A stretch of DNA of 64,000 nt from Roseibium sp. (GTDB taxonomy: Bacteria > Pseudomonadota > Alphaproteobacteria > Rhizobiales > Stappiaceae), in contig NZ_CP134616.1 in the NCBI RefSeq assembly GCF_051016195.1, positions 956,110 to 1,020,109 on the forward strand, written 5' to 3'. The notes below the pieces were generated by a model. That model worked only from the letters and a program-made list of their open reading frames with translations, was not told where the DNA came from and did no database searches. Shown in pieces: positions 31,841 through 36,604 of the stretch (position 1 is the first letter of the stretch; each line of letters opens with the position of its first letter). Both the position numbers and the translations under genes were made by a program.

Positions 31841-33955
31841 TCAGCAGGGTACTTCGATCCAGGGCGCTGGACGGCCGAAATGGAATCCTTGCGCGGCTTC
31901 GATGTCCAGTGTCCGCAGAAGATCGGCCTGAGCGGGCGTCTCGATATGTTTTGCGATCACCTTCATTCCCAGATTGCGCGCCGCACCGATCAGGCCGCTA
32001 AGAATTTCCGCCCGTGCGGGTTCCCGCAAGACCTGGCGCGTCAGCCCTGCCTCCAGCTTCAGCCACTCGACCCGCATGCCGGGCAGACGCGAGAGAACCG
32101 GCCAGTGACCGGCGAAGTCGTCGATCGCCGTCTGACACCCGAATTCGGAGACGAAACCGAAGAAGGATTCCACCGTCGACGGCTCTCTCAGGAAATCCTT
32201 TTCCGCGATCTCCAGGCACAGGCGCGATGCCAGCAGCGGATTGACAGACAGCCTGTTGTGCAGACTGTCGCGGAAACCCGGATCACGCGCGGATTCCGCT
32301 GAAACGTTCATCGTCAAAAGCGACCTTGTGGCGTTGCGCTCCGCCGCATCGAGCACCCTGTCGAGCGTCCAGGCATCGACCTGGGCGATAAAACCCGAGC
32401 GTTCGGCTGCTGAAATCCAGGCGCGGGAAGAAAGCCCCTTTGCCCGGTCACCCTGGAGACGCAGCAGTACCTCGTGGCCGCAGGTCTCGTTGTTCCTGAG
32501 CGACACGATCGGCATGGCATAGAGAACCAGTTCCTTGCCGCAGAAGCTCTCCGGTTCGGGCAGATCGCTCTTTTCTTCCGGTTCTGAGGTGTCTTCGCCG
32601 GCCTCTCCCCCGTAGAGTTGAACCGATCGCCCGCCCCCGCGCTTGCCGCGCAGACAGGCCGTATCGGCAAGGCCCAGCAGTGCATTTGCATCCGTGTTTT
32701 TCCGCCGCATCGCCGCATCGCAATAGGCCACCCCGACAGATCCGGAAATGGTGAACACACGATCCTTGATTTCAAGCCTTATCCTGGCAAATCCTTCCAG
32801 AACCTTTTCGGCATATTCATGCGCGGTTTCCCGGCTCGTGACCGGCAGCATCGCCGCGAATTCATCGCCGCCGATCCTTGCAACCGTTGCCAGTTCACCC
32901 AGTGTCAGCTTCAGGCAGGACGCGACCTGGAGCAGCATGTCGTCACCCGCGTCATGCCCTCCAAGATCATTGACCTTCTTGAACTCATCGAGATCGATGT
33001 AGTAGACGGCGAGCCCCGCATCTCCATCGTCGCGAATGTGTTCCAGCTCCCGCTTCAACGCCCGTGTGAAGGCGCGCCGGTTTTCCAGCCCCGTCAGCGG
33101 ATCCTCATAGGCCAGACGCTTGTTCTCCGCTATTTCAGCCGGGTTTTCGACGTTCCGCCGGACAATGGCCATGCATGCATTCCGCGACACGTTTCCCTCG
33201 AAGTCGCCCGGCAAGGCGACCAGCCTGACCTCGCAGACCCGCGCACCACCTTGCGCGGCGTCTTGTGTGAACGGCGCGGCCTCGGGAATATGCAGCGTCT
33301 GCGGAAGGGATTGCCGAGCCACTTCCAGCGTCCGCATCAACCCTTCAAGATCCTGGGCCCCATCCGTTTTTTCCAAAAGGGTCAGCGCCATGTCTTCATG
33401 GCTCTCACGGCCGTCGAAAAAAAGGATTTCGTCGGGGAAATGCGCGAGAACCCGGCTGTCGGAAACGCGCTGAACATGCGTTCCGGCAGATGCCGGCGCC
33501 GTGCGGCCCGGCACGTCCGCTGCCATCGGCCAGCGTTCCGCGATGCCGCTTTCGGTCTCGAACTGGACAAGGACCGCCTCACAGCCCTTTTGCAGAAAGA
33601 CATGGGACGTGCACATGAAATGACTGCAGAAAACGTCTCCGGATCTGACGTGCATTTCACCGCTGACCTCAGCGGGCAGGCCTCCGAAGGCAGCCTCGAG
33701 GACCCGCTCGAACCGCGCGCAGCTCTCGCCGGACAGGAACGCCTGAAACCGATCGGGAACAGACACGAGACCCCGTTTTTGGAGACTGTTTTCGAACGTC
33801 TTGTTGCAGGCCAGAATGGCCCCGTCCCTTGCGACATAGGCCGCAGCGAAGGGCAGCACTTCCAAAAGAGAAGTGTGAAAGGCAGACAGTATATTGCTCT
33901 GCGTCGGACCGGAATGATCCCTCCGGTCAGCCGCCAACCGATGGCTGATTTGCAC
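31841..33955 (-). CDS. PAS-like/GGDEF/EAL protein with a degenerate EAL domain
   Basis: DPLTGLENRR, IDLDEFKKVND..GHDAGD, RIGGDEF intact; EAL motifs read EVLLR, NVS, EIAE, DDFAGH, KLE, AKHIET. Confidence 0.9.
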   Translation of the reverse strand: MQISHRLAADRRDHSGPTQSNILSAFHTSLLEVLPFAAAYVARDGAILACNKTFENSLQKRGLVSVPDRFQAFLSGESCARFERVLEAAFGGLPAEVSGEMHVRSGDVFCSHFMCTSHVFLQKGCEAVLVQFETESGIAERWPMAADVPGRTAPASAGTHVQRVSDSRVLAHFPDEILFFDGRESHEDMALTLLEKTDGAQDLEGLMRTLEVARQSLPQTLHIPEAAPFTQDAAQGGARVCEVRLVALPGDFEGNVSRNACMAIVRRNVENPAEIAENKRLAYEDPLTGLENRRAFTRALKRELEHIRDDGDAGLAVYYIDLDEFKKVNDLGGHDAGDDMLLQVASCLKLTLGELATVARIGGDEFAAMLPVTSRETAHEYAEKVLEGFARIRLEIKDRVFTISGSVGVAYCDAAMRRKNTDANALLGLADTACLRGKRGGGRSVQLYGGEAGEDTSEPEEKSDLPEPESFCGKELVLYAMPIVSLRNNETCGHEVLLRLQGDRAKGLSSRAWISAAERSGFIAQVDAWTLDRVLDAAERNATRSLLTMNVSAESARDPGFRDSLHNRLSVNPLLASRLCLEIAEKDFLREPSTVESFFGFVSEFGCQTAIDDFAGHWPVLSRLPGMRVEWLKLEAGLTRQVLREPARAEILSGLIGAARNLGMKVIAKHIETPAQADLLRTLDIEAAQGFHFGRPAPWIEVPC

Positions 33956-34088
33956 CAGACAACCCTTTCGACAAAGTCTTCTTTATTGACGCCTTTTGAA
34001 ATACTCGTGCGTCACCCCTGAAAATTATTACCACAGTTTAACCGTTTAATTTGGCTAAGCAAAACAACTCACAGATCTTAAAAATTTT

Positions 34089-34293
34089 ATGGTTAATATT
34101 AATTTTACTAATAATTTTCAAATTTATTTCAAATTTATATTTCTCTCTACTCATATTATCCTAAATTGCTGAATTTGCCTTATTTTGATCACTGCTTTGA
34201 CGTAGAGGAACGCGCCGTCGGGCCGAAAACCCAAATTTCCAATCCGTAAAAAAATATTGGCGGCGACAGGGTGAGGTTTGCCATGTTAACCAT
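34089..34293. promoter_or_regulatory. AT-rich divergent promoter with CtrA-type TTAACCAT 8-mers
   Basis: ATGGTTAA at 34089-34096, TTAACCAT at 34286-34293, TTAACC at 34038-34043. Confidence 0.45.
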
Positions 34294-34699
34294 TTCTGCA
34301 CGGGTTTTACGCCCGTTCGTTGCGGTGTGCGTTGTCTCTCCGCTCATGTTTTTTCCCGCCTCCGCGCAGGCAAAAGACGCCTTTCAGCAATGCGGAAAAG
34401 CCTCCTGGTACAAACTGGGCGGAACCACGGCCAGCGGAGAACGCGCCAACCCGCAGGGTCTGACAGCCGCACACAGGACGCTGCCGTTTGGCACCCTTGT
34501 TGACGTCACCAACCTTTCAAACGGCAAGACAGTGACAGTTCGCATCAACGACCGTGGCCCGTTTGCTAAAGGCCGCGTGATTGACGTGACCCTGGCAGCC
34601 GCCAGGCAGCTCGGTTTCGTTCAAAAGGGCATTACCAAGGTGCGCGTCACCAACGCCGATGCACCGAATAGCGCGGTTCATAAGCAGAAATGCCAGTAG
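34283..34699 (+). CDS. rlpA: Short RlpA-family lytic transglycosylase (DPBB only, no SPOR domain)
   Basis: [45 protein letters not shown]. Confidence 0.92.
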
Positions 34700-34874
34700 G
34701 CGGTTCTGAAAACCTGATTTCAGCGGGCTTTGGAAGGCGGCGGATTTGACTGCGAACGCGCTTCAGTGATCTGGAAACGCTCGTGTTTCGACCGATGCCG
34801 GAACATCGATACCTGACTCAGTATGAATAACGATCAGTCGCATTAGAGTGAATCAAAAAATAAAATATTTTACG

Positions 34875-34906
34875 GTAATGACATTACATTGAGATGTCGC
34901 TAGAGT
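34875..34906 (+). promoter_or_regulatory. Orphan sigma70-type promoter with an overlapping palindrome
   Basis: ATGACA (34878-34883), 17-nt spacer, TAGAGT (34901-34906); GTAATG-A-CATTAC palindrome at 34875-34887. Confidence 0.55.
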
Positions 34907-34912
34907 TGCCGC

Positions 34913-34978
34913 CGTGGTCGATGGGGCCACGTGCACAGTAACTTTATTCGCGCAGTCTCACGGCTGCGCGTTTTTTTT
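34913..34978 (+). ncRNA. Candidate ~66-nt small RNA
   Basis: 5' hairpin CGTGGTC-GATGG-GGCCACG, unpaired linker, terminator CGCGCAGTC-TCAC-GGCTGCGCG-T8; promoter directly upstream; no convincing ORF. Confidence 0.55.
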
Positions 34979-35047
34979 GTCCGGCGTTCTTATCGGCTGT
35001 TCAATCAGCGTCTCACCGACTTGCCGAACGACAACCATCCGGCTCCG

Positions 35048-36604
35048 TCATACGCTCTCGTTCCGGTCCAGCCGCTCCAGGAAGTTTGCAGCGCTCTCCA
35101 GATATTCCGCCTGTTTTTCCGGTGCCATCCGGTTCCAGGTGGCATAGGGCTGCCCCAATCGGGGGTTCCCCTTCAGGACATCCCGGTTCCGCTCAAGGAA
35201 CGCCCAGTACAGCGCGTTGAAGGGACAAGCGGCCTTGCCCGTCTTCAGACGGACATCGTAGGAACAGTCTCCGCAATAATCCGACATCTTGTTGATGTAA
35301 TTGCCGCTGGAGACGTACGGCTTGGATGCCAGCAGTCCTCCATCGGCGAACTGGCTCATGCCGATCGTGTTCGGAAGCTCGACCCACTCATAGGCATCCG
35401 CATATACGGCGAGGTACCATTCGTGCACCTCGTGCGGATCCACTCCTGCCAGCAGCGCAAAGTTGCCCGTGATCATCAGCCGCTGAATATGGTGCGCATA
35501 GGCCTCCTCGATTGTCTGGCCGACCGCCTCGGCCAGGCAGCGCATGCCTGTTTCGCCGGTCCAGTAGAAACCGGGCAGCGATCGTGACGCGCCGAACGCG
35601 TTGGAGCCGGCATAGTCCGGCATCTTCAGCCAGTAGATGCCGCGCACATATTCCCGCCAGCCGAGGATCTGGCGGATATAGCCCTCAGCCGCATTCAGGG
35701 GGGCGTTTCCCTTCTCGTACGCTGCCTCAACCTTCCGGCAGAGATCGAGCGGATCCAGCAGACCGGCATTGAGATATGCGGAAATGACCGAGTGATAGAG
35801 AAACTTTTCCCCGGTCAGCATGGCGTCCTGATAGGTCCCGAAACCGGCGAGCGCTTCCTTTAAAAAGAGGTCAAAGGCGGCCTCTGCGTCACGCCGGGTG
35901 ACCGCGAACCAGAACGGTTCGAGCGTGCCGACGTGATCACCGAAACGCGCCCCGACAAGGTCCAGAACCTCCCGGGTGATCTCATCCGGGGAACACCGGG
36001 CCGGCTGCGGCATGAAGAGATCCGTGCGAGCCGGCTTGCGGTTGTCGGCGTCATAGTTCCATTTGCCGCCGGCCGGCTTGCCGTTTTCCATCAGGAGATC
36101 GGTCTTCAGACGCATCTCGCGGTAGAAATGTTCCATCCGCAATTGTTTGCGGTCCGCTGCCCAGGCCCTGAAGCCCGCCCCGGAGATGATGAACCGCGTG
36201 TCCTCGCGCAGCTCGACCGGGACACCTGTCAGCTCCTGCCAGGAGCTGATATCCGCGCGCACCCGCCATTCGCCCGGTTCGGTGACGATAAGCGTTTCAG
36301 GCGCCAGCGCCGCACAGGCCCGCGCAACCTCGCCGCGGAAACTTCCCGTATTCGCATCATCATCCAGCTTGACATAATCGACCTGCCAGCCGTCTTCCCG
36401 CAGCTCCCGTGCAAAATGGCGCATGGCCGAGAGCACGAAGGCGATCTTCTTTTTGTGGTGCCGGACATAGGTCGTTTCCTCCTGCACTTCGACCATCATC
36501 ACGCGGTCCCGCTCCCTGTCTGCGCCGAGGAGGCTCGAAATGGCGGGGGTCAGCTGATCGCCCAGGATCAGGATGAGATGTCGGCAGCCGGTCTTTGTCG
36601 TCAT
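35048..36604 (-). CDS. Cryptochrome/photolyase family, FeS-BCP (PhrB/CryB-like (6-4) photolyase)
   Basis: LILGDQL, HHKKKI....AMRHFA, MEHFYR.MR, GGKWNYD.DNR, QILGWREYVRG, AHHIQRLM; four Cys (MRC, DYC, GDC, ACPFN). Confidence 0.92.
   Translation of the reverse strand: MTTKTGCRHLILILGDQLTPAISSLLGADRERDRVMMVEVQEETTYVRHHKKKIAFVLSAMRHFARELREDGWQVDYVKLDDDANTGSFRGEVARACAALAPETLIVTEPGEWRVRADISSWQELTGVPVELREDTRFIISGAGFRAWAADRKQLRMEHFYREMRLKTDLLMENGKPAGGKWNYDADNRKPARTDLFMPQPARCSPDEITREVLDLVGARFGDHVGTLEPFWFAVTRRDAEAAFDLFLKEALAGFGTYQDAMLTGEKFLYHSVISAYLNAGLLDPLDLCRKVEAAYEKGNAPLNAAEGYIRQILGWREYVRGIYWLKMPDYAGSNAFGASRSLPGFYWTGETGMRCLAEAVGQTIEEAYAHHIQRLMITGNFALLAGVDPHEVHEWYLAVYADAYEWVELPNTIGMSQFADGGLLASKPYVSSGNYINKMSDYCGDCSYDVRLKTGKAACPFNALYWAFLERNRDVLKGNPRLGQPYATWNRMAPEKQAEYLESAANFLERLDRNESV

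Follow-up and report, generated by a model that had tools for sequence, protein, structure and literature searches.

The window, by which we mean the whole 64-kb stretch of DNA analysed here (G000:C1:956110-1020109), belongs to a Roseibium genome of 6.54 Mb with a G+C content of 58.8%. Between an rlpA-like gene and a convergent photolyase-related gene it carries a predicted small RNA (sRNA) gene of 65 nt, with promoter elements and a conserved upstream region in front of it. The features of the locus are listed in window coordinates, with the evidence for each in brackets.

31841-33955, minus strand: flanking gene for a PAS-GGDEF-EAL protein (open reading frame (ORF) and Pfam).
34271-34699, plus strand: rlpA-like gene, context, with a DPBB lytic transglycosylase domain (ORF; Pfam DPBB_1, E = 1.9e-25).
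34815-34860, plus strand: conserved upstream block GACTCAGTATGAATAACGATCAGTCGCAT...GTGAATCA (alignment of 30 orthologues).
34855-34872, plus strand: AT-rich, UP-element-like tract that includes the palindrome TAAAATATTTTA (sequence; conserved among orthologues).
34873-34883, plus strand: CGGTAATGACA with the putative -35 hexamer ATGACA at 34878-34883 (5/6 matches to TTGACA).
34875-34887, plus strand: palindrome GTAATG-A-CATTAC of the initial annotation (sequence; right arm not conserved).
34901-34906, plus strand: putative -10 hexamer TAGAGT (promoter scan; orthologue variants).
34914-34978, plus strand: predicted type-A sRNA of 65 nt, with G34914 as its first nucleotide and the U-tract as its 3′ end (conservation, fold, covariance model).
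34914-34930, plus strand: 5′ hairpin GUGGUC-GAUGG-GGCCAC, whose 6-bp stem closes a 5-nt loop with an AUG in it (fold; conservation).
34931-34942, plus strand: single-stranded GUGCAC-AGUAAC, candidate seed (orthologue and family alignments).
34943-34948, plus strand: variable U-rich spacer UUUAUU before the terminator (differs among orthologues).
34949-34978, plus strand: intrinsic terminator, 9-bp stem, 4-nt loop and U8 (terminator scan; covariation).
35048-36604, minus strand: photolyase-related gene of the DPRP family, context (ORF; Pfam DPRP, E = 3.6e-83).

The rlpA-like gene has the same orientation as the sRNA and is its conserved upstream neighbour in Roseibium (cluster c4), and the photolyase-related DPRP gene, convergent with the sRNA, is the usual downstream neighbour (cluster c5). 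The rlpA stop codon (34699) lies 215 nt from the predicted +1 (G34914) and 279 nt from the end of the T-run, so that the distance of 250 nt past this stop given in the initial annotation holds as an approximation. In a scan of 34000-35800 the only terminator-like site was that of the sRNA itself, with none in the interval that separates it from the rlpA stop, and the mRNA and the sRNA therefore probably share one terminator. Where the GGDEF-EAL gene and rlpA diverge, the intergenic DNA (34030-34200) falls as low as 19% in G+C content, compared with 58.8% for the genome; this extremely AT-rich region is likely to be a shared promoter or a nucleoid-protein binding region.

The 66-nt fold of the RNA has a minimum free energy of -27.6 kcal/mol (z = -4.2) and beats all 200 shuffled sequences. 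With a covariance model (CM), designated R1 and built from 45 diverse copies, the type-A sRNA of the window scores 82 bits. The molecule would comprise three modules, namely an invariant 5′ hairpin followed by GUGCAC(A), a copy-specific single strand, and a terminator hairpin with a U-tail. This arrangement of 5′ hairpin, single strand and terminator with U-tail is retained in all 94 unique sequences when each is folded independently.

The 5′ hairpin, initially described as 7 bp long, spans 34913/34914-34930/34931 and does have 7 bp in this genome, six of which are conserved. In more than 140 copies it is invariant except for C17U, which replaces G-C by G.U, and G13A, which replaces U.G by U-A and is found in one genus; these are the only substitutions seen in the 5′ helix, and both preserve pairing. 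Together with the adjoining GUGCAC, the hairpin makes nucleotides 1-24 of the RNA practically invariant. Nucleotides 1-23/24 form the invariant module, which takes in the hairpin with its GAUGG loop and, after it, the self-complementary hexamer GUGCAC.

The 17-nt unpaired linker of the initial annotation is found at 34932-34948. No copy of the family departs from GUGCAC(A), AGUAAC is specific to type A, and the most divergent second copies (40-50 bits) retain GUGGUCGAUGGGGCCA(C/U)GUGCAC(A) exactly. Past GUGCAC(A) the divergent copies read AGUAAC..., AGUGAUC..., AAAACUU..., UUUUACUU... or ACACCUU..., and a short ACUU recurs directly ahead of the terminator. The copy-specific single strand is AGUAACUUUAUU in the window copy and AGUGAUCAACUU in the sister copy described below. 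The linker had been put forward as the seed, a role that its first 6-9 nt (GUGCAC[AGU]) fit by their invariance, but the remainder is copy-specific or variable and its U-rich 3′ part differs between copies. The U-rich spacer (34943-34948) may contact Hfq.

The 3′ end is formed by a 9-bp G+C-rich stem (34949-34970) followed by T8 (34971-34978), which reads as a terminator on the plus strand only, in agreement with the initial description. Covariation in relatives, proposed there as a check, occurs at all six modelled terminator pairs, each of which has compensatory changes in a CM-guided alignment of 65 copies, with 98.7% of cells paired. The covariation score of 0.397 compares with 0.123 in shuffles (0 of 500 as good) and at most 0.137 in slid controls. 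The alignment was fitted to the CM and somewhat favours structure; the independent single-sequence folds agree with it. The element is thus a Rho-independent terminator supported by covariation.

The promoter hexamers ATGACA (34878-34883) and TAGAGT (34901-34906), noted initially at a spacing of 17 bp, are present as described and match the -35 and -10 consensus at 5/6 and 4/6 positions, respectively, resembling a good sigma-70 promoter. Across an alignment of 30 orthologues GTAATGACA is unchanged. Of 46 unique sequences upstream of type A, 39 have ATGACA and 32 have TAGAGT, and the -10 variants listed in orthologues (TAGTAT, TAGGAT, TAAAGT, TATCAT, TAATGT and TATACT) all retain T1, A2 and T6 (TAnnnT). 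The spacer between the hexamers is constant in length (17 bp) and drifts in sequence, both in the orthologue alignment and in the 46 unique promoters. A type-A-like copy in another genus (L179) retains GTAATGACA-17-TACATT. This pattern of conserved hexamers around a drifting spacer is promoter-like behaviour as far as alignments can tell. Sequence invariance in the 30 orthologues starts exactly at G34914, 8 nt past the -10 hexamer, and we infer that the 5′ end of the RNA lies at or beside this nucleotide. In 34000-35800, one promoter-like site was found where 1.1 were expected in shuffles, and one terminator-like site where 2.2 were expected; motif scans of the single sequence are thus at chance level, and it is conservation that raises the elements above it. 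Judged by conservation only, type A has a promoter of its own.

Over the -35 the initial annotation reported a perfect palindrome, GTAATG-A-CATTAC, and assigned it the role of an operator. The palindrome exists at 34875-34887, but its arms are not both conserved and the operator role is not sustained: the right arm CATTAC occurs in only 5 of the 46 unique promoters, the others reading CATTCT, CAATCG, CAAACC and the like. Immediately upstream, TAAAATATTTTA forms a perfect 12-bp palindrome (34861-34872) in the type-A promoter, from about -53 to -42, and is unique in the genome. One species (L024) carries TAACATATGTTA in its place, and this symmetric double change hints that the site is bound by a dimeric DNA-binding protein rather than being a plain UP element. 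Conservation upstream of type A reaches back to about -100. The block at 34815-34860, for which no clear second copy was found elsewhere in the genome, is possibly a candidate regulator-binding region.

The RNA had been regarded as an orphan, a view that the data do not support, as the genome holds a paralogue and related copies are distributed throughout the family Stappiaceae. Nearly every genome has another locus that matches GTGGTCGATGGGGCCACGTGCACAGT exactly over 26 nt. In the genome of the window it comprises the following features.

About G000:C1:6370498-6370561, minus strand: sister copy, type B (DNA search; own G+C-rich terminator).
G000:C1:6370596-6370611 (L031 1561-1576): palindrome TCACCC-N4-GGGTGA in the type-B sRNA promoter, which lies back-to-back with that of dxs.

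Type A has the layout ...AAAAATAAAATATTTTACGGTAATGACA-N17-TAGAGT-N7-GUGGUCGAUGGGGCCACGUGCACAGUAACUUUAUU-terminator, and type B has the layout gTCACCC-N4-GGGTGATGCA-N~17-cTAnnn-N6/7-GUGGUCGAUGGGGCCACGUGCACAGUGAUC(A/G)ACUU-terminator. An identical module of 24-26 nt is common to both, making them siblings in a family of at least two paralogues per genome. At nearly every locus with an upstream flank, and in all genera, type B is divergent from dxs, at a gap of 150-270 bp, and a convergent gene lies downstream. With no co-oriented gene upstream, type B needs its own promoter and is neither a 3′ UTR nor a leader.

The -35 of type B is weak and is overlapped by the conserved palindrome TCACCC-N4-GGGTGA at about -50 to -35, where class-II activators bind. 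In 41 genomes this palindrome has 1-3 sites per genome, compared with approximately none for the reversed control; one site always ends about 35 nt upstream of the sRNA +1, and the remaining sites are intragenic. Only one site lies outside coding DNA in the genome of the window. By these counts the exact palindrome is essentially specific to the type-B sRNA promoter and is conserved across Stappiaceae genera, and we infer that this promoter is activator-dependent, with an essentially dedicated putative site. The palindrome may resemble operators of the CsoR/FrmR type. A search for a wider regulon by relaxed promoter motifs was too noisy to be used.

The distribution of the RNA coincides with the family. 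A DNA search located the window locus in 36 of 36 genomes of the same genus, Roseibium, and in none of 24 genomes that belong to other families in the order, and the conservation in relatives on which the initial annotation had staked its proposal is therefore borne out. R1 matches 40 of 41 Stappiaceae genomes and all ten sampled genera, with 64-84 bits for the main copy and 40-50 bits for divergent second copies; the only genome missed is a contaminated 20-Mb assembly. In 300 genomes of the order, strong matches are confined to the nine family members. A pattern scan of GTDB species genomes detected the RNA core in Roseibium/Labrenzia, Stappia, Pseudovibrio, Pannonibacter, Polycladidibacter and Breoghania. 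Seven genera have one copy per genome, Roseibium and two further genera have two, and one Roseibium genome has three. Type B is the universal copy, and type-A-like copies (GTAATGACA-17-TAnnnT) are present in Roseibium and at least two other genera.

Matches to R1 outside Stappiaceae do not exceed 27 bits and were rejected as distant homologues, since those inspected fall in coding DNA, one of them at the 5′ end of a metH-like gene. This best match outside the family (L162, G175:C1:1967404-1967465), in a genome of another family of the order, lies in sense orientation in the apparent 5′ coding region (...ILVLDGAMGT...). The metH gene of the window genome shows no similarity, and the match is hence judged a coincidence.

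A further copy was observed in Roseibium hamelinense (L107, NZ_VLLF01000003.1). It has the type-A linker (GUAACUUUU) under an unrelated upstream region and between different flanking genes, which indicates that the module can move to new promoters.

Positions 34914-34978 on the plus strand thus very probably constitute a genuine sRNA gene of about 65 nt that is independently transcribed. The discrete gene of about 66 nt with its own promoter and terminator that the initial annotation proposed is upheld by the conservation of the promoter, the covariation of the terminator and the presence of a self-transcribed paralogue. The RNA represents a previously undescribed, family-restricted sRNA family with two paralogous types. 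For its function we favour, with moderate confidence, the reading as a sibling trans-acting base-pairing sRNA of a Stappiaceae-specific family. A sigma-70-type promoter, ATGACA-17-TAGAGT, located after the AT-rich UP-like tract, would start transcription at G34914 or at an adjoining nucleotide, and transcription would halt at the covarying intrinsic terminator, which probably also ends transcripts reading through from rlpA. One effector module would be supplied from two differently regulated promoters. The single strand centred on GUGCAC would pair in trans, over short or imperfect stretches, with mRNAs, the 5′ hairpin may protect the RNA, and the U-rich stretch with the terminator may act as the handle for a chaperone (Hfq). 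The genome encodes hfq (tblastn match with 52% identity over 67 aa, E = 8e-21, G000:C1:4675849-4676049).

Complementarity searches did not single out an mRNA. RNAduplex, applied to about 11,000 candidate start regions, gave noisy output. The genome of the window has 21 exact complements of the invariant 9-mer, two of which are the sRNA genes; in eight other genomes such complements are rare and do not exceed the control level, and no gene recurs among the 29 sites that were inspected in seven of these. Seed k-mers are not enriched in translation-initiation regions, and the distribution of ungapped complementarity is the same as that of the reversed control. Exact 9-mers, ungapped scans and initiation-region enrichment therefore yielded no conserved target, and pairings of 6-8 nt or with imperfections fall outside the reach of such tests.

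Four individual candidates were rejected. The hemB 5′ UTR has a 10-nt perfect match in this genome that is absent from 29 other hemB leaders, even inside Roseibium. The 47-codon ORF downstream of metH has an 11-nt perfect match right after its ATG, which is retained in one orthologue only. A 22/24 duplex lies within the coding sequence of a membrane protein that only 3 of 41 genomes encode. The leader of dxs, the neighbour in cis, has no conserved complementary block, and what is conserved there is only the dxs promoter and the palindrome.

The 47-aa small-protein gene just downstream of metH (MTVHVARAILVKHRQDYNRDRLAWLP...; L211, G000:C1:4116180-4116560) is itself conserved, with a paralogue at G000:C1:3641639-3641761; the protein matches no Pfam family and occurs in at least four genera. 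Between the -35 and the -10 of its promoter, CTTGAA-N16-CTAATAT, lies a conserved palindrome of 15 bp, G[TC]GCACA-N-TGTGC[GA]C, often with a second copy upstream, and the small-protein family is probably repressor-controlled.

An alternative reading accepts a real sRNA of an unconventional kind. The invariant 24-nt 5′ module would be a protein handle (for titration, as a sponge or as a guide) or would dimerise through the self-complementary CACGUGCAC, and regulation would pass through that partner. We consider this unlikely, though not negligible. The invariance of stem, loop and GUGCAC across ten genera, broken only by the two changes that preserve pairing, goes beyond what protection of the RNA needs, which hints at a sequence-specific partner, and the absence of a conserved complementary target points the same way; the null result for exact 9-mers nevertheless leaves room for pairings of 6-8 nt or imperfect ones, and no candidate protein partner has been identified. 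The RNA lacks GGA motifs and is thus not a sponge of the CsrA type. Homodimers and heterodimers mediated by GUGCAC are predicted with a ddG of -10.9 kcal/mol, but this energy is equalled by 5.5% of shuffled-linker controls, and dimerisation was set aside as unexceptional.

A narrower form of this idea takes the 24-nt 5′ module (the AUG-loop hairpin with GUGCAC) as a docking element for a dedicated partner, either a protein or a second RNA copy engaged via GUGCAC, instead of an ordinary seed. It strikes us as rather improbable. If it were true, the Stappiaceae would carry a two-promoter riboregulator of an undescribed mechanistic type, with one copy hard-wired beside dxs and driven by a dedicated palindrome-binding activator.

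It is very improbable that there is no separate gene here, with the terminator ending a long rlpA 3′ UTR and the promoter-like hexamers arising by chance. This would accord with rlpA as the conserved co-oriented neighbour, with the lack of any terminator-like site from the rlpA stop to 34949 and with the chance-level promoter scan (1 against 1.1 expected). It does not account for the same RNA module at a second locus that has no co-oriented upstream gene, for the maintenance of the -35 and -10 beside a drifting spacer, for an invariance that begins at the predicted +1 and does not extend across the 215 nt after rlpA, or for the type-A-like copies of other genera, which retain GTAATGACA-17-TAnnnT.

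Translation into a tiny peptide is scarcely credible. The frame AUG(34921)-GGG-CCA-CGU-GCA-CAG-UAA (MGPRAQ) has its AUG in the hairpin loop and an in-frame stop right after CAG in both types, UGA replacing UAA in type B, and a leaderless GTG-start frame could also be read. However, no Shine-Dalgarno sequence and no synonymous variation were detected in more than 140 copies, C17U alters the peptide, and divergent copies have no stop and have lost both the GTG frame and the mini-frame. Both coding readings were rejected by their pattern of conservation, and by its variation, the absence of a Shine-Dalgarno sequence and the loss of the frames the gene is non-coding. A DNA-level element (repeat, att site or protein-binding site) can practically be dismissed, because the overlapping DNA palindromes CACGTG and GTGCAC in the core are outweighed by the low number of 1-3 copies per genome, the fixed synteny, the lack of a symmetric operator around the core, and an RNA signature, namely a covarying stem that has a T-run behind it on one strand only.

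The favoured reading of a trans-acting sibling sRNA, and the gene pair as such, bear on a family, with Roseibium/Labrenzia, Stappia, Pseudovibrio and Pannonibacter among its members, that is commonly associated with corals, sponges and algae. A well-delimited, family-wide pair of sRNA genes with clear promoters, one of them with an apparent dedicated activator site, offers a convenient starting point for studying post-transcriptional regulation in the Stappiaceae. The practically invariant 24-nt module and the fixed position beside dxs suggest a conserved core function that is directly testable.

Full-text searches of the literature found no sRNA described for Stappiaceae, and neither the core nor the palindrome turned up in them. 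Comparison with Rfam revealed no known family at the gathering threshold in the whole window save a tRNA, and the type-B copy has no hit at all. Membership of a known Rfam family was rejected, as the matches (ncS025, ncS54 and TarB) are below threshold and driven by architecture. The best of them, the Burkholderia ncS025 (RF02869), scores 33.8 bits (E = 7e-4 for 1.3 kb), compared with a gathering score of 46. The type-A RNA is similar to ncS025 in length and layout, with hairpins, a CUUU-containing spacer and a G+C-rich terminator with a U-tail. However, the first helix of the ncS025 model does not form, what similarity there is comes from the variable linker and the terminator and not from the conserved core, the two RNAs come from different phylum-level lineages, and the sister copy with the same core has no Rfam hit.

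DapZ and MicL are sRNAs associated with 3′ UTRs that have an internal promoter and share a terminator with the mRNA. Type A is similar to them in that it begins about 215 nt past the co-oriented rlpA with no intervening terminator, but its promoter is intergenic and not within a coding sequence, and type B is free-standing and divergent from dxs.

Sibling trans-acting sRNAs are exemplified by AbcR1/AbcR2 (alpha-r15) of the Rhizobiales, OmrA/OmrB and Qrr1-4. In common with these, the Stappiaceae RNAs fall among sRNAs of about 60-110 nt with their own promoters and intrinsic terminators, in a genome that encodes hfq, and they occur as at least two paralogues in which an identical functional module is placed under differently regulated promoters. 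They have no sequence or Rfam relationship to the known siblings, and the two copies are unlinked rather than in tandem. Furthermore, the shared module of AbcR, OmrA/OmrB and Qrr is an anti-Shine-Dalgarno loop or a single-stranded seed at the 5′ terminus, whereas that of the Stappiaceae RNA is a whole 5′ hairpin together with a palindromic hexamer.
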